A stretch of 50,615 nt of DNA, from positions 1-50,615 of the IMG/VR virus record IMGVR_UViG_3300048074_000056. One strand, written 5' to 3'. Below are positions 2,853 through 50,615 of the stretch, one piece after another (the stretch's first letter is position 1; every line of letters begins with the position of its first letter). The stretch comes from a virus (taxonomy: Duplodnaviria > Caudoviricetes). The notes beneath the pieces are model-generated. The model was not told where the DNA came from. It saw nothing but the letters and a program-made list of their open reading frames with translations, and did not search any database. The translations under genes and the position numbers were made by a program.

Positions 2853-3092
2853 ATGCACTCCGAGCAGACTCGCACCCTGATTGCCGCCTATCGTACCCGC
2901 ACCCGTGCGGGCGACGACCACTCGGCCGCGCTCGACCACGCGCTCGACGCCATGCTTGCGGAGTGGCGTCGGATCGACCCCGCGCGATTCCGCCGAGCCT
3001 ACACCCGCGCTCGCTACATACCCGCGGGCGACCCGGACGTTGCCCGACTACTGCGGGCGTTCGAGCGCGCGCTTGAAGTAGCCCCGCAATGA
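2853..3092 (+). CDS. Hypothetical protein
   Basis: GAGG RBS; ATGA overlap with next gene. Confidence 0.65.
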   Translation: MHSEQTRTLIAAYRTRTRAGDDHSAALDHALDAMLAEWRRIDPARFRRAYTRARYIPAGDPDVARLLRAFERALEVAPQ

Positions 3093-3544
3093 GCCCGGCT
3101 AGCCGTATCCGGGAAGCGACTATCCACTACCGAGGCCGACCCCGCTCGGCTTCGATCGGTGGCCCGTACGACCTAGCCCGGTTCGTGCGAGGGGTCGTGA
3201 CCGACCACGCCCGCGAGCACATAGTGTGCGTGTGGGCGGACGGTCGTCGGGTGCCGATCGGCTGGCATCTAGTCGGGGTTGGGACGGCAACCGAGGCGTT
3301 GGTTGCGCCCCGCGAGGTGTATCAATCCCCGCTCATGGCCGGGGCTGTGTCCATCATGCTGGCCCATACCCACCCGACCGGCGACATAAGCCCCTCGCAA
3401 GAGGACTACGGAGTTACCCTGCGCCTGATCGAAGCGGGGCGCATCCTCGGGATACCGCTCGAAGATCATGTAGTGGTATCACTCTATAACCAAAGCTGTG
3501 TTTCGATCCGCGAGGCCAACCCGAGCCTATGGGCGAAGGTATGA
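3089..3544 (+). CDS. radC: RadC-like JAB domain protein
   Basis: PREV...AHTHPTGDISPSQED JAMM-type HxH...S..D motif. Confidence 0.85.
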   Translation: MSPASRIREATIHYRGRPRSASIGGPYDLARFVRGVVTDHAREHIVCVWADGRRVPIGWHLVGVGTATEALVAPREVYQSPLMAGAVSIMLAHTHPTGDISPSQEDYGVTLRLIEAGRILGIPLEDHVVVSLYNQSCVSIREANPSLWAKV

Positions 3545-4245
3545 CGAGCCTCGCTCTCGCCGTCGCGTCCACCCGAAACGCCAAACTCGGCCCCTTCGTA
3601 TCGGCCACCTATGCCCACATCGGTTCGACGTGCCCCCGCGCCTGCCCCCTGCGGGATGCCGGCTGCTATGCCCAACAGGGTCACATGGCAGCACACCAGA
3701 AACGACTAGCGCCCCCGCACCCACTCCCCGATCGCGCCGCCCCCCTTGTCGCCGCCCGCGCCGAAGCGGCCGCCATCCTGCGGTTGCCCCGCGTCGGCCA
3801 GCCCCTCCGCCTGCACGTCTCGGGTGACTGTCGAACACCCGCGGCCGCTCGCACCCTCGCCGCAGCGGTAGCCGAGTGGCAAGCGGGTGGGGGTGGCCCC
3901 GCGTGGACCTACACCCACGCATGGCGCACGGTCCCCGCGGCCGCGTGGGGGAGCATCTACGCTCACGCCTCAATCGAACATCCCCAAGACGTCGCCCGCA
4001 CCGTCGCCCGCGGATACTCCGCCGCCCTTGTGGTGGCCGACCACCCCTCCGGCCATACAGCCCTCGCAGCCGTCGGGGCGAAGGGGGTGGCCTGCCCCGC
4101 CCAGACTCACCCCGCCGCCACCTGCTCGACGTGCCGGCTTTGCTTCGATGGAAACAAAGTTTGGGGTGCGGGGTCTGTGATTATGTTTGCTGCCCACGGT
4201 TCCCAGTCCCACCGGGTCCGCACCACCCTCGCAACCCTCGCCTAG
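3541..4245 (+). CDS. Phage GP88-like Cys-rich protein
   Basis: TCPRACP...GCYA, RLHVSGD, WTYTH, CPAQ...TCSTCRLC. Confidence 0.65.
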   Translation: MTSLALAVASTRNAKLGPFVSATYAHIGSTCPRACPLRDAGCYAQQGHMAAHQKRLAPPHPLPDRAAPLVAARAEAAAILRLPRVGQPLRLHVSGDCRTPAAARTLAAAVAEWQAGGGGPAWTYTHAWRTVPAAAWGSIYAHASIEHPQDVARTVARGYSAALVVADHPSGHTALAAVGAKGVACPAQTHPAATCSTCRLCFDGNKVWGAGSVIMFAAHGSQSHRVRTTLATLA

Positions 4246-4257
4246 GAGCTTTGCCAC

Positions 4258-4485
4258 GTGCCCACCCACCGATCCGACGGCTCATGTTGCCCCCGCACCA
4301 TTCTCCACCTGAAGGGCCCCCGCAGCGGTCTCCCCGCCAACCTGAGGCGACTGGTGAGCCCCATCGTCGCCGTCCACACGTTCGGTCGCCGCAACCAGCC
4401 CTACGCCTACACTCTTGAGTTACCCGGCGGGAACTACATGCGAGTCCCCGCCCTGTATTTCGTCCCCGCCGACCCCGCCCCTTGA
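4258..4485 (+). CDS. Hypothetical protein
   Basis: AGGAG upstream of GTG; fills the operon gap. Confidence 0.45.
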   Translation: MPTHRSDGSCCPRTILHLKGPRSGLPANLRRLVSPIVAVHTFGRRNQPYAYTLELPGGNYMRVPALYFVPADPAP

Positions 4486-4538
4486 CGACCCCCGCAGCGG
4501 TATGTATCTCCCACCCTCTCAACTAGGAGCACCCCACC

Positions 4539-5309
4539 ATGGCGATTCCCACATTCGACCCGATCCCCCGCGGCGGTCTGGGGGTCCGAGCCACCCTCAC
4601 CGGCCTCATTCAGGGGCCCCCCATGACCGGAAAGACTACCTTCATGGGAACATGGCCCGATCCCGGGTTCATCCACTTCGACCCCAACACCCCCGTCGTT
4701 GCCAACCAACTCGGCCCCGTCGTCGTGGTGGAGTCGTGGCCTCACTTCCGCGACCACATCGTCCCCGCCATCGTCTCGGGACGGTGGAAGGGGGTTCGCA
4801 CCGTGTGCGTGGACTCCCTCACCTACGCCTGTCGGATGTCGGATGAGGCGGCCGGCGTCCGGGGGAAGGCCAGCGAGGGGGCTGCCTACACCCTCTCCCG
4901 CATCGAGTTTTCGCAGGCCATGCAGCGACTGTTGACGGTGGCCCGGTTCCCATCGGTTCCCGCCCCCGCCCACGTCCTCTGTTCGGTCCACGAGACTGAG
5001 AAGACTGACCGGGACGGATCAGTTCGGGATATCGTGCCCGCCGTCACCGGCCAACTCAAGGACCAACTGGCGGGATGGTTCGACTTCGTGTTTCTTGCAT
5101 CCCTGCGCATCGTCAACCGGCAGGTGGGAACCCGGATCGAGCGGGTGGCCGAACGCTACCTCTCAACCATCCCGGTAGACACCATGCGTCCCTACATTGC
5201 CGACCGGGTCGGGGGCAAGCTGTTTCCCGGCACTCTCCCCGCGGAGGTGTCCCCGCCCACCTACCAACGACTTGCCGAGCTGTGGGAGATCCCCTCAACT
5301 CACCCCTAA
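4539..5309 (+). CDS. AAA_24 / Sak4-like P-loop ATPase (single-strand annealing recombinase)
   Basis: Walker A GPPMTGKTT, Walker B VCVDSLT, WFDFVF; adjacent to a putative SSB. Confidence 0.8.
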   Translation: MAIPTFDPIPRGGLGVRATLTGLIQGPPMTGKTTFMGTWPDPGFIHFDPNTPVVANQLGPVVVVESWPHFRDHIVPAIVSGRWKGVRTVCVDSLTYACRMSDEAAGVRGKASEGAAYTLSRIEFSQAMQRLLTVARFPSVPAPAHVLCSVHETEKTDRDGSVRDIVPAVTGQLKDQLAGWFDFVFLASLRIVNRQVGTRIERVAERYLSTIPVDTMRPYIADRVGGKLFPGTLPAEVSPPTYQRLAELWEIPSTHP

Positions 5310-5400
5310 CCCCGTCCGATGGAACCACCGACTGGTCGGCGGCATCCATCCATCGCAAGCCCACCCGGGCACCCAACCACCAACAGGATAGGAAACACCC

Positions 5401-5823
5401 ATGAGCATCATTCAGTGGACCACCGACGACGAAACCCGGCCGGAGTTCACCTCCGGCACCCACATCGGCAAGCTCATCTCTGTGATGAGCGAACCGCCCA
5501 AGAAGCCGAACGACGACCGGGGTCAGCCGAACCCCAACAACCTCGTCTGGCGAGTGGTGGGGAAGGACTCCATCACAAACGACACCTGCTACGTCACCGC
5601 ATGGAACCCGCTCCGTCCCAAGTCGGGCGGCATGAAGAAGAATGGTGAGTGGCTGCGCGCGCTGGGGATCGACCCGGCGAAGGGCATCACGTTCACCGAC
5701 ACCGATCAGCCGGGTATCTCCGAGATCAAGGAGCTTGCCAACCTCGACATCCAGTTCACCATCGAGCTGGAAACCAAGGACGGTGAGACTCGGGCTCGCC
5801 TCAAGAACATCACAGTCGCCTAA
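5401..5823 (+). CDS. Putative single-stranded DNA-binding protein (DUF669-like)
   Basis: Position after Sak4-like gene, beta-rich 140 aa; mainly synteny. Confidence 0.5.
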   Translation: MSIIQWTTDDETRPEFTSGTHIGKLISVMSEPPKKPNDDRGQPNPNNLVWRVVGKDSITNDTCYVTAWNPLRPKSGGMKKNGEWLRALGIDPAKGITFTDTDQPGISEIKELANLDIQFTIELETKDGETRARLKNITVA

Positions 5824-5831
5824 CCCGGTTC

Positions 5832-5858
5832 GGGGTGGGGGGATTACTCCCCCACCCC
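5832..5858 (+). terminator. GC-rich intergenic hairpin
   Basis: GGGGTGGGGG...CCCCCACCCC inverted repeat. Confidence 0.4.
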
Positions 5859-5880
5859 ACCCCACCCAAAGGAACCCCTC

Positions 5881-6150
5881 ATGAGCATCAACGTCAACGG
5901 CCTCACCAAACTCCCGTTCCGGGTCCTCAGCGGCGACGGGAACGAGGTGGCTGGCACCGAAACCCTCAAGGCAGCCGAAGCCTACATTCGGACCGAGGCC
6001 CCCAACGGCACCTACCACATCATCAAGGTGATCCGCGCCTTCCTGAACGTGGAGACGGTGACCAAGCGACAGGTGGGTGGTGGTGAGCCCACCACGAGCC
6101 GCACCCGCACCCGCCCGGCCACCTTCGACCCCGACGCAGGCTCCGTCTGA
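5881..6150 (+). CDS. Hypothetical protein
   Basis: AAGGAA RBS; codon style like neighbours. Confidence 0.7.
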   Translation: MSINVNGLTKLPFRVLSGDGNEVAGTETLKAAEAYIRTEAPNGTYHIIKVIRAFLNVETVTKRQVGGGEPTTSRTRTRPATFDPDAGSV

Positions 6151-6563
6151 TGGGCTGCTGTGTGAACCGCAGTCAACTCCTGCCCCTCATCGAAGAGCGA
6201 GTGTCTCGCGACGCCATCGCTCACCTGTCCGAAGCCATGACGGTGGAGCCCCTCGGCCACCGTCTCATCGTGGTGTGTGAGGTGACCCCCGAAACCACGG
6301 CGGGTGGCCTCATCAGGGCGGACGCCGGTCAACGGCTGTCGGCGGGATGGGTGGTAAGCTGCGGCGAAGATGTGGGTACCCCCTCCCGATTCCCCGGCGG
6401 GTGGCACCTCCCCGCCGACCAACTGCTCGGACGTCGGGTCATCTTCTCCCAGTATGGGGGAGCCCCCCTCGTGCTAGGGGACCGGGACCGCCCTTACGAT
6501 GCCGATTACCGCATCCTCAACGACTGCGATTTGTGGGCCGTCGTAAACGAGCCCACGGAGTGA
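6150..6563 (+). CDS. groES: Co-chaperonin GroES-like protein
   Basis: EPLGHRLIV, ETTAGGLI mobile loop, RVIFSQYGG, YRILNDCDLWAVV. Confidence 0.85.
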   Translation: MGCCVNRSQLLPLIEERVSRDAIAHLSEAMTVEPLGHRLIVVCEVTPETTAGGLIRADAGQRLSAGWVVSCGEDVGTPSRFPGGWHLPADQLLGRRVIFSQYGGAPLVLGDRDRPYDADYRILNDCDLWAVVNEPTE

Positions 6564-6567
6564 CCCC

Positions 6568-6768
6568 ATGACTACCAAACTCGCCCCCAGTCATCACCGC
6601 TTCATCACGTTCTACGTTCACCCCAACCACCACCGACGAGTGAAGGCAGCCGCCCGCAAGCACAAGCTCAGCTTGTCGGCCTACGTCCGCAACCTCATCC
6701 TCCACGACATCGGGCTCGACGCCTCAGAAGACTACCGCCACATCAAGCGACGGCGGGCAGTCCGATGA
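6568..6768 (+). CDS. Ribbon-helix-helix-like DNA-binding protein
   Basis: FITFYV...VKAAARKHKLSLSAYVRNLI pattern. Confidence 0.6.
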   Translation: MTTKLAPSHHRFITFYVHPNHHRRVKAAARKHKLSLSAYVRNLILHDIGLDASEDYRHIKRRRAVR

Positions 6769-7289
6769 GCCTGCGGGATGGGCCGGCCCCCTCCAACCCT
6801 TCTCAGCCGTGGGGTGTCGTCGGTAAGCGTCCTCCCACCTGTGAAGGGTGCCCGGCCCATCCCACCAGCCTCGGGTGGGTACCACCCATCGGCCCCACCA
6901 CCGCCACCATCGCCCTCATCGGGCAGGGCCCGGGACGTGAAGAAGCCTACGAGTCGATCCCCTTCGTGGGAGCGTCGGGCCGGATGCTCGATCGCTGGTT
7001 GATGCACGCCGGCCTCTCTCGCGAAGCACTCCACATTACCAACACCGTCTGGTGTCACCTACCGGGAAACCGCCCCCCTACCCTCACCGAAACTACCCAC
7101 TGCTGGGATCACCACGTTGGCCCCACCCTCCACTCCCTCCCCAACCTGCGGGTGGTGGTGCCGGTCGGCATCGCCGCCCAGCGTCTCCTGTTGTGGAGTG
7201 AGGGGCCGGGGGAGCGGTTGGTGGGTGGGGTGTACCGGGTGAGGCTCCCGGCCGTCCCTCTATATCCCAACTCTCCCGCCACTCTTTAG
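6765..7289 (+). CDS. Uracil-DNA glycosylase family 4-like, N-terminal fragment (split polymerase piece 1)
   Basis: CEGCP, GQGPGREE, PFVGASG, ITNTVWC..P.NRPP; C-terminal HP motif absent. Confidence 0.85.
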   Translation: MSLRDGPAPSNPSQPWGVVGKRPPTCEGCPAHPTSLGWVPPIGPTTATIALIGQGPGREEAYESIPFVGASGRMLDRWLMHAGLSREALHITNTVWCHLPGNRPPTLTETTHCWDHHVGPTLHSLPNLRVVVPVGIAAQRLLLWSEGPGERLVGGVYRVRLPAVPLYPNSPATL

Positions 7290-7300
7290 GAGCCAACCCG

Positions 7301-7498
7301 ATGCTTGAGTTCATCCTTGGTTGTTGTGTGGGATACTTCGCCCTCGAATTACTCGGCAGCCTGTTCTATGTCCCAAACGTCAACCCCCAACCATACGACG
7401 GCCGTTGTCGGGGGTGCGGAATCCCGCTCACCGATGAATCGGTGACGGAACTCTACTATCACGAGAAGTGTCACCCGTATGGGAGACACCTCAAGTGA
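7301..7498 (+). CDS. Small membrane protein with CxxC
   Basis: N-terminal hydrophobic segment, CRGC; AGGAG RBS. Confidence 0.6.
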   Translation: MLEFILGCCVGYFALELLGSLFYVPNVNPQPYDGRCRGCGIPLTDESVTELYYHEKCHPYGRHLK

Positions 7499-9073: not shown

Positions 9074-9990
9074 CCGACACACCCAACCCGCTGCCCGACC
9101 TCCTAGCCGGGGTATGCGAACACCGCCGCAAGAAGTATCCGGCGGTGGATATGCCGGCCCGTCTGTGCTCGGAGTGCATCCAGCTTGTGGTCGATGACCA
9201 CGCTGACCTCCAGCGGCAGGTGGCCGAGTTGGGAGCCCGTACCCACGACGGCGACCTAGCTGCCCGCCTCGCCGCGCTCGAAGCCGCCATGAGTGTATAC
9301 GTTGTCGAAGGGGCAGTCCTTGACCGTGCGAGATTTGCCGAGAAACGCGCCGAGGAACTTCGCCAAAATCTGCATGCCGTCGTGCTTCACAATGTAGAGA
9401 TGGCCACAAAGCTGTCGATTGTCGAGCGTGAGCGCGACGACGCCTTGCGTGGTCTACAGAAGGACTGCTGCGAAGCCATCGCATCCGTTGCAGACGAGCC
9501 CCGTTGCAAGCACGACGACGGCCGATGCCGTGACTGTGAGATAGAGGCGGCACACGACTCGTGTGCGAAGCCGGCGCGTTTCGAGCCCACACTAATCACG
9601 TTTGACGGTGCCCCGGTGACGATTATCGACCACACGACAGGGCTGGAATGGGATGCGCGGCCGACTAGCGAGGCAGACAAGCTGAACTGGCAGGGTGCGC
9701 ATGATCGAATCGCCACAATGAACACCGAACGCTTCGCCGGCCACACCGATTGGAGAGTGCCCACGATCGACGAGCTTTTCACGCTGATTGACCACAGCAC
9801 TCATGGTCCGTCCACGTTCGAGCCGTTCAGGGCTTGCACGCTTTCGAACGACTACTGGTCTTCGTCTACGTACGTGGGCTATCCGCAGGACGCGTGGACC
9901 GTGAACTTCTACAACGGCGACGTGAATGCGTTCAACAAGTCGAACTTCAACTACGTTCGCGCAGTCCGCACGGTGGAGGTGAAGCCGTGA
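9070..9990 (+). CDS. Coiled-coil protein with C-terminal DUF1566 (Lcl / C-type lectin fold) domain
   Basis: DHTTGLEW, GHTDWRVPTIDEL, YWSSST...AWTVNF...YVRAVR. Confidence 0.85.
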   Translation: MTDTPNPLPDLLAGVCEHRRKKYPAVDMPARLCSECIQLVVDDHADLQRQVAELGARTHDGDLAARLAALEAAMSVYVVEGAVLDRARFAEKRAEELRQNLHAVVLHNVEMATKLSIVERERDDALRGLQKDCCEAIASVADEPRCKHDDGRCRDCEIEAAHDSCAKPARFEPTLITFDGAPVTIIDHTTGLEWDARPTSEADKLNWQGAHDRIATMNTERFAGHTDWRVPTIDELFTLIDHSTHGPSTFEPFRACTLSNDYWSSSTYVGYPQDAWTVNFYNGDVNAFNKSNFNYVRAVRTVEVKP

Positions 9991-10340
9991 ACAATGAGAT
10001 TTCCGACAATGCGCAAAGGTGGCTCGATTCGCAATGTGACCACCATGTGGAGCTTGCGCGCCAACACTGTGCTCTGTGCATCGCCGAACTTGTTGACGAT
10101 GGCGTAAATGCAACATCGCGAAGAGAAGAAACATACCAATGGGCGAAGCGCACCATCATGGAGCGCACTGCGGATATGGATGCCGAGCTAGCCGCCCTCC
10201 GAGCCCAAGTTACGAGCTTGCAAGCTGTGGTGATCGCGGCAAACGCGCACTGGTCCTATTCCAGCATTGCGGCGATCAGGGAGAAACTCGAAGCACTACA
10301 CCTCATCGACTTGATGCCGATTGACGAGGTGAAGCCGTGA
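9987..10340 (+). CDS. Hypothetical cassette protein ending DEVKP
   Basis: GTGA-coupled at both ends. Confidence 0.65.
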   Translation: MNNEISDNAQRWLDSQCDHHVELARQHCALCIAELVDDGVNATSRREETYQWAKRTIMERTADMDAELAALRAQVTSLQAVVIAANAHWSYSSIAAIREKLEALHLIDLMPIDEVKP

Positions 10341-10612
10341 CCGACGATCTCGAACAAGCCAGAGAACTTGTGACAGACATGCAAGACGCGAGCGGAGCGA
10401 TAATCGTTCCGAGGGCCTCCGAACTATTGCGAATCGACACGCTACTTGCGGCAGTGCAGGCAGACCTCACGAGCCTGCGCGCGGTAGTCCACGAGGTCGC
10501 GCACGCTGGTGTCGAGGCCGAGGCCCGCAAGTACCTCGTGGTGCAGATCGGTCACGAGACAATGGCCGAGGCGCGAAGGCTCGCACTGGCCACCGAGGAG
10601 GAAAAGCCGTGA
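10337..10612 (+). CDS. Hypothetical cassette protein, C-terminus shared with 11757..12074
   Basis: KYLVVQIGHETMAEARRLALATEEEKP. Confidence 0.7.
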   Translation: MTDDLEQARELVTDMQDASGAIIVPRASELLRIDTLLAAVQADLTSLRAVVHEVAHAGVEAEARKYLVVQIGHETMAEARRLALATEEEKP

Positions 10613-10776
10613 AGCCTTACTCGCGCTGCTGTAACGGATGTGACGCACCCCCGCACGCGCCAAGCAAGGTGCTGTGCCGGGATTGCTTCGCAAAGCTGGA
10701 TGCAAAGATGCAGGCATTGTTTGTCCGTCACGCGGACAAACAGGACGCAGACACGATCGACGAGGTGAAGCCGTGA
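10609..10776 (+). CDS. Small Zn-finger-like cassette protein, 55 aa
   Basis: CNGC...CRDC...DEVKP; not in ORF track; GTGA-coupled. Confidence 0.6.
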   Translation: MKPYSRCCNGCDAPPHAPSKVLCRDCFAKLDAKMQALFVRHADKQDADTIDEVKP

Positions 10777-11210
10777 GAAACACAATCTGCGTCAGGCTCG
10801 TGCTCGCCGAACTCTCTCACCGTACGGACCTTCTGCGCGAAGCGAAACACGCGCTCAGCGTCGCGGAGCGCGAGCGCGCATCCGTCGCCGACAGACTGAA
10901 CTCGGCGCTGAGGCAGGCGCACCTCGGAGAGATCGAATCTGGATCGCTGGAGAACATCCACTCGGGAATCGCTCGGATCGAGTCAGCTATCGCTCTGCCT
11001 CGCTGCCCGCACGACGACGACGAGATCAACGAGCTGCGCGCCGAACTCGCTGCCCTGCGATCCCGCCTCGCGCGCGTGTTGGAGTATCTCAGCGAGCATG
11101 AGTGCGGGGGGCACGGCCTTGTTCACAACTGCTTCCGCATCCTCACACCTGAGACATGCGGGATTCTTCGGACCGGCGACCTTGGCCCGATCGAGGAGGA
11201 GAAGCCGTGA
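10773..11210 (+). CDS. Coiled-coil cassette protein
   Basis: Ends RLARVL...GDLGPIEEEKP, similar to 12071..12388. Confidence 0.65.
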   Translation: MRNTICVRLVLAELSHRTDLLREAKHALSVAERERASVADRLNSALRQAHLGEIESGSLENIHSGIARIESAIALPRCPHDDDEINELRAELAALRSRLARVLEYLSEHECGGHGLVHNCFRILTPETCGILRTGDLGPIEEEKP

Positions 11211-11503
11211 TCGACGTAACTGCCCTGCTGGCAGCCATCGACAATATCGCGAACCTGCCTGAGAACTGGGACACCTACGGCGGTCTCGCAGTGCCATCCA
11301 AAGTCATCGAACGTGCCAAGTGCATCGTGCAACTGATTCACTCTGCGCCTGTCATTGCGCCGATGGTAACCGGAGGTGTCTACATGGTATGGGAGTCCGC
11401 CGATGCGGCTGTGACAATCATCATCCGTACTGACGGCTGCGATGGGATTTATGTTGACGTGTGGCCGCCGGACGCACCGACCACCAAGGAGGGCGACAAG
11501 TGA
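11207..11503 (+). CDS. Hypothetical cassette protein
   Basis: LPENWDTYGG...PMVTGGVYMVWE; GTGA-coupled. Confidence 0.65.
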   Translation: MIDVTALLAAIDNIANLPENWDTYGGLAVPSKVIERAKCIVQLIHSAPVIAPMVTGGVYMVWESADAAVTIIIRTDGCDGIYVDVWPPDAPTTKEGDK

Positions 11504-11760
11504 CTCGACCGAAGCCTATCACGCCGTACGCGCGGCTATTGGCGGCTGCGAATCGGTTTGAATCGCGCGTCCTTTACCCGAAGCGAAAGATCATGTGGTT
11601 CTACCCGAAGAGCAAACTCGGCGAGTCTTGGGCTCTCAATGATCTCGCAGAGCGCGTACAAGCTGCGGACCAGCTCGGCTACGACGTGCGGTTGGTAGTA
11701 GATGGCAATGGCAACCTGTCAGTGGAGTACGTCGAGCGTCCCGGGAGTCTCAACGTATGA
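11500..11760 (+). CDS. Hypothetical cassette protein, intact paralog of 12385..12645
   Basis: TRPKPITPYARLL...VEYVERPGSLNV. Confidence 0.7.
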   Translation: MTRPKPITPYARLLAAANRFESRVLYPKRKIMWFYPKSKLGESWALNDLAERVQAADQLGYDVRLVVDGNGNLSVEYVERPGSLNV

Positions 11761-12074
11761 CCCGCCAGCAAACCCACTACGAAGGCTGCCACGAGCACCA
11801 CCTCGAATGCGCGCTTGCCAAGCTGGAGCGCACGCAGGCCAGCTTGGCAGCATCCGAGGCGGAGCTGCACCAGAAACGCGAGTGGATCGCAAAGCTCGAA
11901 GACGCCTTGGGCGCACTCCATCAGCGAGAGTGGGAACTGAGGAATGTGGTCTACGAGTTTGCGGTGGCCGGCATCGAGCGCGACGCGGGGAAGTATCTCG
12001 TGGTGCAGGTGTCGCACGAGACGATGGAAGAAGCGCGGAGGCTTGCATTGGCCACTGACGAGGAGAAGTCGTGA
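11757..12074 (+). CDS. Coiled-coil cassette protein
   Basis: THYEGCHEHHLECA N-terminus; C-terminus shared with 10337..10612. Confidence 0.7.
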   Translation: MTRQQTHYEGCHEHHLECALAKLERTQASLAASEAELHQKREWIAKLEDALGALHQREWELRNVVYEFAVAGIERDAGKYLVVQVSHETMEEARRLALATDEEKS

Positions 12075-12388
12075 ACGAGGAAATGGTTGTGCTTAGGCTG
12101 GCCGGGGCAATCATACGGGGAGAGCGGTTGTACGACCTCCTCGCCGTGATATTCCGCGACAACGGTGAGCGCGCACAGGAGTTGGGAGACGAGGCAGCAG
12201 TAGAAGAGGCGTGCCTGTCTGTGATGCGTCTGCTCGATGTCGCAGACGACCGCGACGCACTTCGTGCTCGTCTCGCGCGCGTGCTGCGGTACGTCAACGC
12301 ACTGCGCGGCTCGCATGAGAAGCAAGTAGCGTTCGACGCGCTCCAGCCCGGCGACCTAGAAGACCCGATCGAGGAGGTGAAGCCGTGA
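12071..12388 (+). CDS. Hypothetical cassette protein
   Basis: Ends GDLEDPIEEVKP. Confidence 0.65.
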   Translation: MNEEMVVLRLAGAIIRGERLYDLLAVIFRDNGERAQELGDEAAVEEACLSVMRLLDVADDRDALRARLARVLRYVNALRGSHEKQVAFDALQPGDLEDPIEEVKP

Positions 12389-12645
12389 CCCGCCCTAAGC
12401 CTGTCACGCCGTACGCGCGGCTATTGGCTATCGCGCGCGAGTTTGAGTCTCGCGTCCTGTTCCCGAAGTAGAAGACGATGTGGGTCTATGAACACGTCTC
12501 GAATGATGCGAACCGTTGGCCACTCGGAGCATTGGCGCAGCGCGTGAATGCGGCGGCCCAACTCGGCTACGACGTGCGACTGAGAACAAACGACGACTCG
12601 ATAATCGTCGAGTACGTCGAGCGACCGGGGAGTCTCGACATATGA
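12385..12645 (+). pseudogene. Paralog of 11500..11760 interrupted by in-frame TAG
   Basis: TRPKPVTPYARLL...FPK*KTMW...VEYVERPGSLDI; TAG at 12469-12471 where the paralog has CGA. Confidence 0.75.
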
Positions 12646-12731
12646 CCCGCTGCAAGCGCCTCGGGCGCACACGTATGACCGACGACATGACCCCCCATTA
12701 GACAAACCCATACCCCCAGAGGACCACCCGA

Positions 12732-13106: not shown

Positions 13107-13363
13107 AGCCCCCGATCCCTCTCCACGAGATGGACTGGCACGAAGCAACTCGGTGGCGGTGGCGGGCCGGTCGGGCCGACCGTGGCCTCACCGACAACGA
13201 CCCCTTCGAGGGGGAACCCCTCCTCGAAGCCTATGAGGAGTTGGTGGATGCTTGGACATATCTCAACTTGGGGGGTGAGGCTGGGTTAGCGGACGACATC
13301 CGACGGTTGGGGGAAAGGCTTCGGGCAGCCATTCAGCACCCCTACCCTCGACTCCACCGATGA
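13103..13363 (+). CDS. Small helical protein, possible MazG-like NTP pyrophosphohydrolase
   Basis: EAYEELVDAWTYL (EExxD) motif; ATGA overlaps on both sides. Confidence 0.5.
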   Translation: MKPPIPLHEMDWHEATRWRWRAGRADRGLTDNDPFEGEPLLEAYEELVDAWTYLNLGGEAGLADDIRRLGERLRAAIQHPYPRLHR

Positions 13364-14022
13364 GTGCTCGGGTCACTAGATTCACCCCTCCCACCCTCAC
13401 TGACCGTGAGGTGTGGGTGGTCCCCATCCTTCACCCTGCCTACATCATGCGGGGTGCGGCTGCCTACGGTCCCCCCCAGATCACCTCCCTCAAGCGAGCA
13501 CGCGCCATCGAACGGGAGGGATGGCAAGAGGTGTCCCTCGGTCGATCGCCGGTTCCCCTCTCCGTGGTCCCCCCCATCGACCCCATCCCCACCCTCACCG
13601 AGTGGGAAGCGGGGTGTGGGGTGGATGGGGTAGTTATCGACATCGAGACGGCCGGCCCCATGCTCCTGTGCGTGGGAATCCTCACCCTAGATGAGCCCCG
13701 CACCGCCCTCGTGGTGCCCTTCAGAGGAGAGGGGGGTGTCCCATGGTATGGCGACCCCGCCGACCTAAAGGGAGTGGTGGCATGGCTATCCCGGTTTTTG
13801 GCGGACCCCACCATCCCCAAGGTGTTCCACAACGGCCAGTCGTTCGACGTCCCCTACCTCCAAGACCTCGGGTTCAGTGTGGGGGGGTACGAGGACGACA
13901 CCCTCCTCATGCAGCACACCGCCTACGCCGAACTCCCCAAAGGGTTGGAGTGGTGTGCGGTCACATACTGCGGGGCTCGCCCATGGAAGCATCTTGGGAA
14001 GGCGGAGGGGGAAGGGAAGTGA
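13360..14022 (+). CDS. UDG C-terminal motif fused to partial PolA 3'-5' exonuclease (split polymerase piece 2)
   Basis: VVPILHPAYIMR (UDG motif B), VIDIET (ExoI), FHNGQSFD (ExoII), DDTLLM; no ExoIII. Confidence 0.85.
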   Translation: MSARVTRFTPPTLTDREVWVVPILHPAYIMRGAAAYGPPQITSLKRARAIEREGWQEVSLGRSPVPLSVVPPIDPIPTLTEWEAGCGVDGVVIDIETAGPMLLCVGILTLDEPRTALVVPFRGEGGVPWYGDPADLKGVVAWLSRFLADPTIPKVFHNGQSFDVPYLQDLGFSVGGYEDDTLLMQHTAYAELPKGLEWCAVTYCGARPWKHLGKAEGEGK

Positions 14023-14115
14023 TGAGCAGTGCGTTGTGCCGCTGACCGATGCAAAGCGGTCCCTTGCGACGCCTCGCCGTGCCTCGTAACGCACACCACA
14101 CCACACCACACCACC
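14021..14115 (+). repeat. 5-nt periodic tract 1 (candidate guide RNA)
   Basis: GCagt GCgtt GTgcc GCtga CCgat GCaaa GCggt CCctt GCgac GCctc GCcgt GCctc GTaac GCaca CCaca CCaca CCaca. Confidence 0.8.
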
Positions 14116-14116
14116 G

Positions 14117-14150
14117 GATGGAACCTCCCAACCACCAATGGTTTCCATCG
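14117..14150 (+). other. Hairpin separating periodic tracts 1 and 2
   Basis: GATGGAACC...GGTTTCCATC imperfect inverted repeat. Confidence 0.6.
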
Positions 14151-14160
14151 AGATGACTAG

Positions 14161-14215
14161 GCCGAGCGGACCGATGCCGAGCAAAGCCGAGCCCAGCCGT
14201 GCAAAGCAAACCCTA
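14161..14215 (+). repeat. 5-nt periodic tract 2 (candidate guide RNA)
   Basis: GCcga GCgga CCgat GCcga GCaaa GCcga GCcca GCcgt GCaaa GCaaa CCcta. Confidence 0.8.
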
Positions 14216-14234
14216 ACCCTTACTGGAGTACCCC

Positions 14235-14801
14235 ATGAAGTCCATCATCGTCCGTATCGAAGGTATCACTCCTCTTCTCATGCACCGATTCGCTGACTCC
14301 TCTCTTGTCTCGATCGGGGGAGCCCGCCCTGTCCACGTCAAAGACGAAGACCCCCGTACGGTGGCCGAGCATGCTGCCTACCGAGATGCCGACGGCAACC
14401 TCTACATCCCCGGGGCATCCATCAGCCGCCTTCTGAGGGAGGCTGGCGCATCCCACAAACAGAAGGGTTCCCGCCGAAGCCTCAAGTATATCATCCCGGG
14501 GGTGGTGATCGTCTCCGAGGACGAACTTCCCCTATACGACTCGGGAACGACTCGGGCTACTCACATCGAGGTAGATAGTCGTGCGATTGTAAACCCCGTC
14601 ACCAAAGCCCGCGTCATGTGCCACCGTGCGCGTCTCAACCGATGGGAGTGTGAGTTTGTGTTGGAGATTGACGACGAGGCGATCGCCGTCACTACCGTCA
14701 ACCAACTGTTGGTGGAGGGTGGTCGAAGGATTGGGTTAGGGGCGTTCCGACCCGAGAAGGGTGGGCCGTTTGGGAGGTTCATGGTAACAAGCTGGGTCTA
14801 G
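14235..14801 (+). CDS. Stand-alone Cas7/RAMP-fold protein (Vipr-like)
   Basis: IIVRIEGITPLLMH first strand, LYIPGASI motif, C-terminal G-rich loop GRRIGLGAFRPEKGGPFGRF. Confidence 0.8.
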   Translation: MKSIIVRIEGITPLLMHRFADSSLVSIGGARPVHVKDEDPRTVAEHAAYRDADGNLYIPGASISRLLREAGASHKQKGSRRSLKYIIPGVVIVSEDELPLYDSGTTRATHIEVDSRAIVNPVTKARVMCHRARLNRWECEFVLEIDDEAIAVTTVNQLLVEGGRRIGLGAFRPEKGGPFGRFMVTSWV

Positions 14802-14803
14802 TC

Positions 14804-14918
14804 GCGACCCGTGCCGATTCCTCGTGATGCACAGCCGTTCGACGCTGAGCTTCGCGGAGCCGACCGTCCCGTCGCCCTGCGTGGCGTTGCCCAGCAAACC
14901 AAACCGTCGCACCGTCCC
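14804..14918 (+). repeat. 5-nt periodic tract 3 (candidate guide RNA)
   Basis: 23 in-register pentamers: GCgac CCgtg CCgat TCctc GTgat GCaca GCcgt TCgac GCtga GCttc GCgga GCcga CCgtc CCgtc GCcct GCgtg GCgtt GCcca GCaaa CCaaa CCgtc GCacc GTccc. Confidence 0.8.
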
Positions 14919-14937
14919 CTCACCATAGGAGCACCCC

Positions 14938-16014
14938 ATGTGTACCCGTATGGATACCGCCACCCCCTCTCCCACCGACACCCCTGCCACCTACACCCCG
15001 ATGGCGGGAGGTGGGGGTTCCCGCATGGGAGTCCACTACCTCTCAGAGTTTGTGGCCTGCCCCATCCGATGGTTCTTCCGGTATGCTTACCCGGGCGGCC
15101 CCGCCGGTGAACCCACCGGCCTCACCACCCACCACACCCCCAACCCTCTCCTCACCGGCACCGCCTACCACGCCGGCATCGAAGAGCTGTATCGGTCGGG
15201 GTGGCGCGATGGTGCGGACACCGGCGAGTGGGACATCGACCGGGCGGTCGCCAAAGTCGAGTCGGAGTTCGAGGCCCGAGCCTCGGAGTGGGCCGATCCC
15301 GACGCCATGGTGGTCGAACGACAGGATACCGTTGCCATGGTCCACCGTTACCAGCGCCACTTCGGAAAGGGCGGGCTAGCTCCCGAGCAGGACCACCTCA
15401 AACTGTTGGCTACCCCGTCCGGGGAACCCGCCCTCGAAGTCGAGTATGAGATCCCGGTCGGCAACCGCATCATGACGGCGCGCATCGACGCCCTCGTTCG
15501 CTACCACGGCATCCTCATGGTGTGTGAGCGCAAAACCTCATCGAGGGTATCGAGCACCCTCCAAACCTACTCCCTCAAGGCCCAACCCCTCGCCCTCCTC
15601 CACCTCGTCAACAGTCACCACGCGGAGCCCGCCAACGCCATCCTCCTCGACATCGCCCACAAAAAACACACCAAGTCGTCCCGTCAACCCGAGTTCCTGC
15701 GGTCCCCCATCTCCCACTCTCCCGACCTCCTCCACCAGTTTGTGAAGGCTGCGGAAGGAACCCTCGACGCCATCGACAACCATATGGGGGTGTGGGGTAT
15801 CAGGGTGAAGGGTGGGGCCGACCCCATGGAAGCCGCCTTCCGAACCTTCCCCCTCCGTGGCCTCTTCAACGACCAGTGTTTCTCGTACCAGAGGGAGTGT
15901 GTGTTCGCGCGCTTCTGTCGTAACCCCGCCTCTGCCCCCAACCAGCTTCCCACCTTCCGACCCCGCATCGTCGCACCGACCGAAACCACCGACGGCGATG
16001 AGGACGGAGAGTGA
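14938..16014 (+). CDS. PD-(D/E)XK (RecB/Cas4-like) exonuclease
   Basis: ACPIRWFF, GTAYHAGIE, RIDALV...ERKTSS, C-terminal C..C..C cluster. Confidence 0.8.
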   Translation: MCTRMDTATPSPTDTPATYTPMAGGGGSRMGVHYLSEFVACPIRWFFRYAYPGGPAGEPTGLTTHHTPNPLLTGTAYHAGIEELYRSGWRDGADTGEWDIDRAVAKVESEFEARASEWADPDAMVVERQDTVAMVHRYQRHFGKGGLAPEQDHLKLLATPSGEPALEVEYEIPVGNRIMTARIDALVRYHGILMVCERKTSSRVSSTLQTYSLKAQPLALLHLVNSHHAEPANAILLDIAHKKHTKSSRQPEFLRSPISHSPDLLHQFVKAAEGTLDAIDNHMGVWGIRVKGGADPMEAAFRTFPLRGLFNDQCFSYQRECVFARFCRNPASAPNQLPTFRPRIVAPTETTDGDEDGE

Positions 16015-17501
16015 CCACCGACCTCGACCGCATCTGTCGTAACCTGACAGCTCCGTGGGGGGATCACCCCGAGGGGAAGGTTGGGTGGGGAACCGCCCAC
16101 CCCAACATCTCCACCCTCGCGGTCCCCCCCACCCAACTCCACCTCTACAACACCTTCGACCTCCACTGGACAGCCCAGCTCCACGACGTCCTCACCCGCG
16201 AACTCCGCTCCAACAACCAGCTCCCCTATTGGCGTAACCGCATCGTCCCCCGGGTGGAGGCGGGGATGGCGATGGCTGCCCGTGGTTTGAGGGTGGACCC
16301 CGCCGAGGTATCGCGACTTCGCAGCCAGCTAACCGCCGAGCTAAAGGAAACCGAGGCGGTGGTGAGGGAGGTGGCCCCCACCCTCAACTTCGCTTCCCCC
16401 AAACAACGAGCCGAGTTTTTGCATGGAGCACCCCCCGCTGGCCTCGGTCTGCCGTTGGTGTCTCGCACCGCAAAGGGAGCCCCCTCCACCAACCAAGACT
16501 CCCTCGACCGTCTCCTCAAGCGAATCAAGGGGGTCCGCAAGTACGAGGGAGCCATCCCCATCCTCCACGCCCTCTTCCACCGCTCTCGCCTCTCCACCAT
16601 CCTCTCTCGCTACCTCGATCTCCCCATCGACCGGGACGGCCGAGTCCGACCCCGTCTTCGCATGTATGGGGCTGCCACCGGCCGATGGTCCTACACCGAG
16701 CCCGCCATCCACCAATACCCCTCCGAGTGTCGAAGCATGTTTGTGGCGGCTCCCGGACACCTCTTGGTGTCAGCCGACTACTCGCAGGTAGAGGCTCGCA
16801 TCTTCGCGTGGGTGGTGGGGCTCCCTACCATGCTGGAAACGTTCCGGCAGGGTGGGGACGTCCACACCATGAACGCCCTCATTCTGTTTGGGTGGTCGCC
16901 CACCCACTGGGAAACCCTAACCCCCACCATGCGTAAAGCGGCCCGCAACGCTGCCAAGGTGTTCCTGTATGGGGTTTGCTTGTATGGGGGGCAGGCCGAG
17001 TCGGTCCACTCCAAACTCTTCTGCCCATGCCCTCGATGTGCTGAGCGGCTGCCCCCCACCATCTCCCAGACCCGCACCGAGCTGCGGGTAGCCCAAGACC
17101 GATGGATGGCCAACCACCCCCAAGTCCTCCTTTGGAGGGAGAGGGTGGTGAGGGAGGTATTGTCCCCCGGGGGATCTCGTACCTACACCAACCCATTCGG
17201 CCAGAAGCGATACTTCTCGGGGTGGGGGCCCGAGGTGGAACGTCAACTCTTCAACTACCCCTGCCAGTCGACCGCCATGGACCTCATCAGCGAAGCTCAG
17301 GTGGAGCTGCACCGAAGGGGATGCCCCATCATCCTCCAACACCACGACTCCCTCGTGGCCGAGGTGCCTGAGGGAGAGGTGGATCGGTGGGCCTCCCTCA
17401 TGCAATCCATTATGACGTGCCCCCGCCCCGAGATTCCTGACCTCCCCCTCGCCGTCGATGTCGAGGTGGGGAGGTCGTGGGGAACCCTCCGCCCCATCTA
17501 G
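16011..17501 (+). CDS. polA: DNA polymerase family A, ExoIII plus polymerase domain (split polymerase piece 3)
   Basis: YNTFD (ExoIII), ATGRWS, ADYSQVEARI (motif A), RNAAKVFLYG (motif B), NYPCQS, HHDSL (motif C). Confidence 0.93.
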   Translation: MTTDLDRICRNLTAPWGDHPEGKVGWGTAHPNISTLAVPPTQLHLYNTFDLHWTAQLHDVLTRELRSNNQLPYWRNRIVPRVEAGMAMAARGLRVDPAEVSRLRSQLTAELKETEAVVREVAPTLNFASPKQRAEFLHGAPPAGLGLPLVSRTAKGAPSTNQDSLDRLLKRIKGVRKYEGAIPILHALFHRSRLSTILSRYLDLPIDRDGRVRPRLRMYGAATGRWSYTEPAIHQYPSECRSMFVAAPGHLLVSADYSQVEARIFAWVVGLPTMLETFRQGGDVHTMNALILFGWSPTHWETLTPTMRKAARNAAKVFLYGVCLYGGQAESVHSKLFCPCPRCAERLPPTISQTRTELRVAQDRWMANHPQVLLWRERVVREVLSPGGSRTYTNPFGQKRYFSGWGPEVERQLFNYPCQSTAMDLISEAQVELHRRGCPIILQHHDSLVAEVPEGEVDRWASLMQSIMTCPRPEIPDLPLAVDVEVGRSWGTLRPI

Positions 17502-50460: not shown

Positions 50461-50586
50461 CGACGGCCCGAACGTTATATCGACTCGTCAACGTGGCCTA
50501 ACCCCACGTAGATGCTCGGGAATCGGGCGAAATCTCGGGGGGGAGAGGGGGGGGTGTGCTATTCCGCTACCCACAGACCACCCCCC
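50461..50586. repeat. Terminal direct repeat / circular assembly overlap, right copy
   Basis: Identical to 1-126, then degrades into C/A runs. Confidence 0.95.
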
Positions 50587-50615
50587 CCCCCCCCCCCACC
50601 CAACCCAAAACAAAA

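Follow-up and report, generated by a model that had tools for sequence, protein, structure and literature searches.

A probable VIPR system in a YNNNG-like form in the genome of a tailed phage

The DNA stretch analyzed here (hereinafter, the window) is the whole IMG/VR virus record IMGVR_UViG_3300048074_000056, a tailed phage sequence of 50,615 nucleotides (nt). It contains a locus that is very probably a VIPR system, consisting of a gene for a RAMP protein of 188 amino acids (positions 14235-14801; hereinafter, vipr) and three putative vrRNA tracts, probably on the same strand. VIPR (Viral Interference Programmable Repeat) systems, which are RNA-guided DNA silencers related to CRISPR, were first described in 2026; as presented in that preprint, they comprise Vipr, a small RAMP protein encoded by phages, the vrRNAs and, in most cases, an accessory gene, vap (10.64898/2026.04.26.720920). 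According to the 2026 VIPR preprints (10.64898/2026.04.26.720920, 10.64898/2026.04.26.720927, 10.64898/2026.10.15.759431), a vrRNA comprises 9-16 YNNGG units and a 3' tail; each unit is bound by one Vipr protomer, which holds GGY, as seen also in the cryo-EM work on the system of Escherichia phage SUSP1 (10.64898/2026.04.26.720927); and the NN bases pair with double-stranded DNA in such a way that every third target base is skipped, which results in the silencing of competing mobile elements. The same preprints distinguish seven VIPR types that differ in vap, and the first of them lists 2,664 Vipr proteins. An earlier note on this DNA, made from the sequence alone, had pointed to such phage systems, and they are indeed in print (10.64898/2026.04.26.720920). 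We further consider it rather likely that the VIPR system of this phage is active.

A Vipr homolog flanked by three pentamer tracts

The 188-amino acid protein contains the RAMP-type motifs that had been noticed previously, namely ITPLLMHR, LYIPGASI and GLGAFRPEKGGPFGRF, and matches over its full length the PHROGs family phrog_4652 (E value 6e-18), the function of which is not known; no match above the threshold was found for it in Pfam. The sole match to this sequence in the PDB is the Vipr protein of SUSP1 (36pp_D), with an E value of 0.0021 for the single sequence and 9.5e-10 for a profile built from 31 homologs. The alignment is limited to residues 122-184, in the C-terminal third of the protein, and includes the G-loop, where GLGAFRPEKGGPFGRF is aligned with GVGDWRPR....FGRF of SUSP1 Vipr. 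The AlphaFold (AF2) model of the protein (pLDDT 86.7, pTM 0.81) yielded 107 PDB matches at an E value of 0.001 or less in a Foldseek search, with Csm3 (6ifn_F, 9.8e-7) at the top, in agreement with the Cas7/Csm3 type of fold that the earlier note had anticipated. As in SUSP1 Vipr, the contact residues H17, R138, W178 and R179 have counterparts here, H17, R131, F171 and R172, respectively, in the HMMER alignment, whereas D177 of SUSP1 corresponds to A170. Judging from these sequence matches, the product of the open reading frame (ORF) is a Vipr homolog.

The three tracts, two of which precede the vipr gene and one of which follows it, include 52 pentamers in a single plus-strand register (Table 1). 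The first position of the register is occupied by G in 36, C in 14 and T in 2 of these units, and the second by C in 48 and T in 4; positions 3 and 4 are near the background, and position 5 is A in 22, C in 15, T in 13 and G in 2 units (chi-square test against the composition of the window, p = 1.2e-8, 6.9e-20, 0.048, 0.19 and 1.7e-6 for positions 1 to 5, respectively). When a 50-nt frame was slid over all 50,615 nt and the phased (G/C)C units were counted out of 10, scores of 9-10 were obtained at 14021-14120, 14151-14225 and 14824-14923 and nowhere else in the genome; four further segments scored 8. In the single-phase scan, the maximum for the real sequence was 10, with 22 starts scoring at least 9, whereas the maxima in 100 dinucleotide-preserving shuffles were 7 in 35, 8 in 60, 9 in 5 and 10 in none. 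Tandem Repeats Finder detected the perfect parts only, namely CACAC at 14092-14114 and a 10-nt unit at 14176-14207.

The in-register pentamers described in the earlier note are thus borne out, with two corrections. Tract 1 starts at 14026 rather than at 14021 because the pentamer GATGA (14021-14025) overlaps the stop codon of the upstream gene and is off-pattern. The tails of the tracts, which had been described as similar, are so in tracts 2 and 3 (GCAAA-GCAAA-CC and GCAAA-CCAAA-CC) but not in tract 1, which ends in three CCACA units and CCACC, followed by a hairpin. This hairpin (14117-14149) appears in both the minimum-energy and the centroid structures and may represent the end or the tail of the first RNA; the stability of the 76-nt stretch that contains it is ordinary (z -0.69). 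The locus has no match in Rfam at the gathering threshold. Also as previously noted, there is no cas operon among the 46 ORFs of the genome that were scanned against PHROGs, and no repeat-spacer (CRISPR) array in the repeat scans of the genome.

The association of the protein with pentamer arrays is not confined to this phage. We identified 454 homologs at an E value of 0.001 or less among 673 candidates, the closest one with 59% identity; in IMG/VR, 122 stretches encode relatives, and 80 of these loci were kept. Phased pentamer arrays adjoin the gene in the IMG/VR loci, and a position weight matrix (PWM) derived from 3972 units of the relatives, on the strand of the gene, has the scaffold G.85, G.93, Y.95. 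Arrays of the G-G-Y form were also found in seven loci from metagenome-assembled genomes (Opitutaceae, Phycisphaerae, Chthoniobacterales, an unnamed bacterium and a Woesearchaeota archaeon) and beside the Vipr homolog of Pseudomonas phage LESphi2. Flanking tracts beside the homologous genes, one of the checks suggested for the VIPR-like reading, are accordingly present in viral contigs and metagenome-assembled genomes alike, and together with the profile match to 36pp_D they support that reading. Relatives that belong to phrog_4652 over the full length of the protein, for example, L001 and L002 (58 and 57% identity, respectively) and L005 (50%), carry the arrays directly beside the gene, as is the case here. 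We searched the loci of the relatives for homologs of the ORFs of the window (n=50; E value of 1e-5 or less) and found vipr in 80 of the 80 loci, the polymerase in 4, and no others; the PD-(D/E)XK nuclease encoded downstream of the third tract, in particular, has no homolog in the 80 loci. Given that the neighbouring genes are not conserved, the recurring unit consists of the gene and the arrays, as expected for VIPR.

By analogy with the SUSP1 system, Vipr would polymerise along each RNA with one protomer for every pentamer; the protomers would hold the fixed bases and display the two variable ones (positions 3-4 of each GC/CC-NNN unit). A filament of this kind would recognize a competing mobile element by its double-stranded DNA, skipping one base per unit, and would silence transcription of that element. 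For this locus, we infer the RNA processing, the formation of the filament, the one-base skip rule and the silencing from the published systems.

Several observations on the relatives concern the arrays themselves. In Pseudomonas phage vB_Pae_LESphi2 (L212, positions 2906-7475 of the record), the Vipr homolog is P21_9, annotated as a "hypothetical protein" (29% identity); the 470-nt gap upstream of P21_9 contains three YNNGG tracts of the canonical form, all followed by a hairpin tail, and an ORF of 163 amino acids that overlaps the stop codon of P21_9 is likely to be vap. In L025 (3600-4840), the arrays show regularly spaced punctuation, each block ending in GGTAAGGTAAGGAATGGTTTAATGAATTTAAT, and in the upstream arrays of L073-L079, the blocks end in GGCAAGGCAAGGTAC or GGCAAGGCAAGGCATGGTAC, with a phase shift. 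An Rfam search of 20 loci of the relatives at the gathering threshold, including the arrays of L025 and L073-L079, gave no match and so no hammerhead ribozymes. The arrays of L005 are scattered over at least 5 kb around the gene, and every array (1330-2010, 3559-3800) ends in a GC-rich hairpin followed by T-rich sequence on the sense strand, terminator-like, one per array.

Table 1. Features of the vipr locus, adjacent genes and matching contigs from RNA libraries
Feature	Position	Strand	Remarks
Exonuclease gene	13360-14022		3'-5' exonuclease part of family-A DNA polymerase
Putative vrRNA tract 1	14026-14115	+ (probable)	18 pentamers; the last four are CCACA x3, then CCACC
Hairpin	14117-14149	+	in the 45-nt spacer between tracts 1 and 2; 9-bp stem, one bulge
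Putative vrRNA tract 2	14161-14215	+ (probable)	11 pentamers; GCAAA-GCAAA-CC end, 24 nt before the vipr start codon
vipr gene	14235-14801	+	188-amino acid RAMP protein, homolog of SUSP1 Vipr, member of phrog_4652
Putative vrRNA tract 3	14804-14918	+ (probable)	23 pentamers; GCAAA-CCAAA 34 nt upstream of the start codon of the nuclease gene
PD-(D/E)XK nuclease gene	14938-16014		Cas4-like, with C-terminal cysteines
Polymerase gene	16011-17501		polymerase part of family-A DNA polymerase
RNA-library contig matches	13954-14217 (X6), 14032-14182 (X10), 14166-14337		region of tracts 1-2
RNA-library contig match	14401-14753		within vipr
RNA-library contig matches	14741-14964 (X9), 14765-14936 (X6), 14771-14963 (X10)		tract 3

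The repeat scaffold and its relation to published VIPR systems

Read on the plus strand, the units have the form H-S-Y-N-N, where H at scaffold position 1 excludes G, position 2 holds mostly G and otherwise C, and position 3 holds C with an occasional T. Position 3 is a pyrimidine in all 52 units; by analogy, this strictness fits the pyrimidine pocket of SUSP1 Vipr, which excludes purines (10.64898/2026.04.26.720927). Two units with AA as the variable bases close tracts 2 and 3. The AA-AA pair is the commonest doubled unit in the sense arrays of the relatives (80 pairs in 40 of 78 loci, with 49 expected), where it often directly precedes array punctuation or an array end, compared with 8 pairs of TT-TT, its minus-strand image; within 80 nt upstream of vipr, AA-AA occurs in only 5 of 58 distinct contexts. 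Half of the CC units (7 of 14) are located in the 3' terminal parts of the tracts, and of the 43 units outside the 3' ends, 34 have G at scaffold position 2, a share inside the range of the relatives.

The locus resembles the type II VIPR systems of Escherichia phage SUSP1 and the Pseudomonas fulva prophage in that a small, solo RAMP protein, homologous in sequence, is phage-borne and comes with no CRISPR array, and in that intergenic pentamer tracts with two variable bases per unit flank the gene on both sides. It differs from these systems in that the scaffold is H-S-Y instead of G-G-Y and the Asp that reads the first G of the scaffold (G1) is replaced by Ala; in that no recognizable vap gene follows vipr and folding of the 3' flanks of the tracts detected no structured or pseudoknot tail; and in that the cassette is located within a split family-A DNA polymerase, with the exonuclease gene on one side and the polymerase gene on the other. 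The canonical GGY scaffold is absent, given that G is found at position 1 in 2 and at position 2 in 36 of the 52 units. However, related consensus forms are admitted in the family, so that this result rules out the canonical form and not membership in the VIPR family: the methods of the first preprint list, besides YNNGG, the alternative repeats NNNGG, YNNNG and NNNNG, with at least four tandem units beside the gene (10.64898/2026.04.26.720920). The 18, 11 and 23 phased units of the three tracts fit YNNNG in the sense N-S-Y-N-N. In the other register, YNNNG is N-G-Y-N-N, with the first G of GGY free, as here and in L005. The differences are that G is avoided at position 1 here, which is more than being free, and that scaffold position 2 is C in 14 of the 52 units. 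The text of the preprint is silent on the type or clade to which YNNNG belongs (10.64898/2026.04.26.720920). The earlier note was right that the scaffold is unlike GGY; the distinct variant that it suspected corresponds to this listed form. Given that the YNNNG variant has been published and fits the locus, we are dealing with a further example of a published kind. In terms of classification, the locus is a VIPR system in a YNNNG-like form, and the picture of VIPR is unchanged.

A type III CRISPR-Cas system can be set apart readily: neither a csm/cmr operon nor Cas10 nor an array was found among the 46 ORFs and in the repeat scans. The identity of the protein to the Csm3/Cas7 backbone subunits is 13-20%; unlike those, it comes with no Cas10, other csm genes or CRISPR array, and the period is five bases with a repeated scaffold, as opposed to six bases on the spacer.

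Activity, decay and the strand of the RNAs

In a VIPR system, the tracts would give rise to RNAs of about 100 nt that co-purify with the protein. Contigs of four metatranscriptome runs match the locus with 100% identity; they span each of the three tracts as well as a portion of vipr, with tract 2 covered by RNA-library contigs of X6, X10 and X13; within 13300-16300, the contigs cover only parts (Table 1). The runs that contain this stretch are all labelled as bioreactor metagenome, and five of them are RNA libraries. These matches demonstrate the presence of the locus in RNA libraries and are not proof of transcription.

Targets were sought under the rule of a one-base skip (xNN), by which a natural target would match at least 80% of the NN bases, with guides of shuffled unit order as controls, and these controls reached the same level in every search. 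In the phage's own genome, the best matches with a skip of 1 were 21/36 for tract 1, 15/22 for tract 2 and 26/46 for tract 3, skips of 0 and 2 gave similar values, and a skip of 3 retrieved only the tracts themselves; thus, no self-target was found. The 80 loci of the relatives contain no target above the shuffles in either strand reading. Under a model with three paired bases per unit, the best matches in 1.69 Mb were 27/39, 21/24 and 33/54, compared with control maxima of 26, 20 and 36. The IMG/VR scans, which used exact seeds of 8-9 units and thus missed targets without a perfect run of 8 units, gave in the plus reading 0 hits in one scan and 23 in another for tract 1 (best full-length match 22/26, at the background level), 73 hits for tract 2 (best 20/22), and 20 hits (best 26/36) plus 7 in a further scan (best 25/36) for tract 3. 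The minus reading, taken as a control, produced 35 hits for tract 1 (best 22/26) and 16 for tract 3 (best 26/44). Given that the two readings reach the same top score, 22/26, none of the IMG/VR matches is a target. The best match of tract 1 is located at 2609-2647 of L085 and has the same sequence in the related L096 and L102; it falls into an open frame, where the skipped base coincides with the wobble position. Conversely, 2751 guide words of the relatives yielded 2 exact 7-unit matches in this genome, compared with 0-3 in shuffled controls.

A number of results weigh against an active VIPR system transcribed from the plus strand. The RNA-library contigs carry no information on strand or ends, and carry-over of DNA is possible. 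No sigma-70-like promoter was found near the tracts on either strand, and the only terminator-like site, 13776-13790, is inside the upstream gene; in the absence of a promoter-like site, the simplest scenario would be co-transcription with the replication genes followed by processing. The 3' flanks of the three tracts fold no better than shuffles (z -0.69, 1.02 and 0.92), and there is no accessory (vap) gene common to the window and the 80 loci of the relatives. The protein has Ala at the site of the G1-reading D177 of SUSP1, where the D177A mutation abolishes silencing; it departs from the family in 6 of the 40 columns that are at least 95% conserved (P117A, V118I, I120N, G125A, R129C and D170A); and scaffold position 2 is G in only 36 of 52 units. 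Finally, the PWM of the relatives scores the minus strand above the plus strand both with the G1 column (-13.5 versus -60.0 nats) and without it (30.3 versus 23.5 nats), and so does the PWM of L005 (35.0 versus 31.4 nats).

A distinctive feature of the locus is the joint loss of G1 and of the residue that reads it. In the cryo-EM structure, D177 and H17 of SUSP1 Vipr form hydrogen bonds with G1, and the D177A mutant has lost silencing (10.64898/2026.04.26.720927). The equivalent position 170 is occupied by Asp in all 80 loci of the relatives, that is, in 80 of 81 sequences when the window is included, and in 174 of the 175 non-redundant sequences of the family, A170 of this phage being the sole exception. 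This loss matches the absence of G at scaffold position 1, where 2 of 52 units have G although its background frequency is 0.31 (p = 1.4e-6); the shortage of G1 is a depletion, not relaxation or neutral decay. When identical proteins were collapsed and at least 15 units were required, which dropped 26 of 81 rows, G occupied scaffold position 1 in at least 70% of the sense-strand units in 49 of 54 loci, whereas the same comparison gave 10% for the window and 26% for L005. The relatives L001 and L002 have canonical GGYNN units, unlike this phage. L005 is the only other locus with little G1; its protein has K81R and R129C in common with the window but retains Asp 170, and there are two changes in its G-loop region (P173V and P178S). 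Its sense-strand arrays have the form N-G-C-N-N and comprise about 150 units in many arrays; accordingly, a form without G1 exists in this protein family, and L005 is a YNNNG-type member. Across the 55 rows of the comparison, the number of departures of the protein and the G1 content show no rank correlation (rho -0.11, p = 0.43), so that the association between the two rests on two cases.

One explanation of this pattern, which we put forward tentatively, is a naturally recoded, working Vipr-vrRNA pair, in which the code of the scaffold has moved from G-G-Y to H-S-Y along with the protein, such that G1 is now selected against. In this scenario, the replacement of the G1-binding Asp by Ala would have been accompanied by changes of five conserved thumb residues, among them R129C, which L005 has as well. 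The competing explanation, which we regard as unlikely, is a VIPR system in decay: the replacement of Asp by Ala would have disabled the recognition of the scaffold, the arrays would be drifting away from GGYNN, and the guides would no longer work. The effect of D177A in SUSP1, with Ala at that site in one of 175 sequences, would be in line with decay, as would the six departures from conserved columns, the maximum in the family (among the others in the non-redundant set of 175, there are 0 in 106, 1 in 39, 2 in 19, 3 in 4 and 4 in 6), five of which, P117A, V118I, I120N, G125A and R129C, are all in the thumb region. The presence of G at scaffold position 2 in only 69% of the units, the small size of the arrays (52 units, compared with up to about 200 in relatives) and the target searches, which yielded no target, point in the same direction. 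However, the reading frame of vipr is intact and the other contact residues are retained; scaffold position 3 is a pyrimidine without exception; drift from GG would leave residual G at position 1 or approach 31%, whereas the observed frequency is far below the background; the AA-AA end units are kept in tracts 2 and 3; and L005, which likewise lacks G1, has its numerous units in many arrays, showing that such a form can thrive. We favour a co-adapted variant scaffold over decay because G is depleted, the pyrimidine position is strict, the end units are retained and the frame is intact.

The strand is a separate question, and most probably the vrRNAs are read from the plus strand. Transcription from the minus strand, antisense to vipr and with units N-G-S-N-N, appears improbable, even if the PWM scores lean that way. 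In the minus-strand reading, 48 of 52 units share a G at one position and 16 of 52 have G at the position before it, compared with 2 of 52 on the plus strand; the RNA-library contigs carry no strand; and one relative, L045, may have an antisense array. In L045, the strand opposite to that of the gene gives the stronger G-G-Y signal, and the residue at position 17, the H17 contact of G1 in SUSP1, is Q. Against these points, 16 of 52 units would have a purine at the pyrimidine position in the minus reading, in conflict with the purine-excluding pocket of SUSP1 Vipr, and the doubled end units would become TT-TT pairs at the 5' end, whereas the relatives have ten AA-AA pairs for every TT-TT pair; furthermore, the arrays are in the sense orientation in relatives with a clear strand, the entire block from 10.7 to 19.3 kb is on the plus strand, and a promoter-like site is found on neither strand. 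It is highly improbable that there is no guide RNA system at all and that the locus combines an orphan CRISPR-derived Cas7-like gene with tracts that arose by chance or act at the level of DNA, for example, as compositional repeats or as sites for protein binding: RNA ends, processing sites and targets are not demonstrated and Rfam is without a match, but relatives with hardly any neighbouring genes in common repeatedly show this combination of the protein family and pentamer arrays, the sequence of the protein matches that of a Vipr of known structure, the periodicity is far beyond that of shuffles, and the genome contains no cas genes or CRISPR array.

Genomic setting and implications

The VIPR cassette and the PD-(D/E)XK nuclease gene are placed between the two halves of a split family-A DNA polymerase, in a region from 10.7 to 19.3 kb where every gene is on the plus strand. 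A family-A DNA polymerase gene is also found just downstream in L002, L012, L013 and L080. The vipr gene and the next gene, for the nuclease, share the same translation start context, GGAG(T/C)ACCCCATG, at 14222-14237 and 14925-14940, respectively. A tandem family of small paralogous genes occupies 9963-12650; these genes have no PHROG match and share a 28-nt gene-end motif, ...GAGGTGAAGCCGTGA, in five copies, each overlapped by the next start, with protein ends of the form ...EE(V/E)KP. The same region contains duplicated segments of 44-130 nt with 73-89% identity, for example, 10484-10613/11946-12075 and 11487-11603/12372-12488.

The scan of the 46 ORFs against PHROGs identified terminase, major head, tail fibre and primase/helicase genes, and the completeness of the record estimated by CheckV is 98%. 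The ends carry a direct terminal repeat of 146 nt with 97% identity (1-146 and 50461-50606) and a run of 21 C (50581-50601); although the record is classified as "linear", the terminal redundancy makes it look like a complete genome. The finding thus adds to VIPR a clean, nearly complete phage genome, from a bioreactor community and from a protein clade distant from the two VIPR systems that have been characterized experimentally.

Beyond this addition, the locus presents a natural experiment on the repeat code: all three arrays lack the first G, and the protein lacks the one residue that mutagenesis has shown to be required for reading it. Swaps of residues and repeats with a GGYNN relative would test how Vipr reads the scaffold and whether mutually blind pairs are feasible. 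It has been reported that the solo vrRNAs of competitors can hijack VIPR (10.64898/2026.10.15.759431). If the recoding is real, the scaffold specificity of VIPR would be evolvable through few residues, and orthogonal Vipr/vrRNA pairs would become possible that are blind to each other's guides and could, for example, escape such hijacking.

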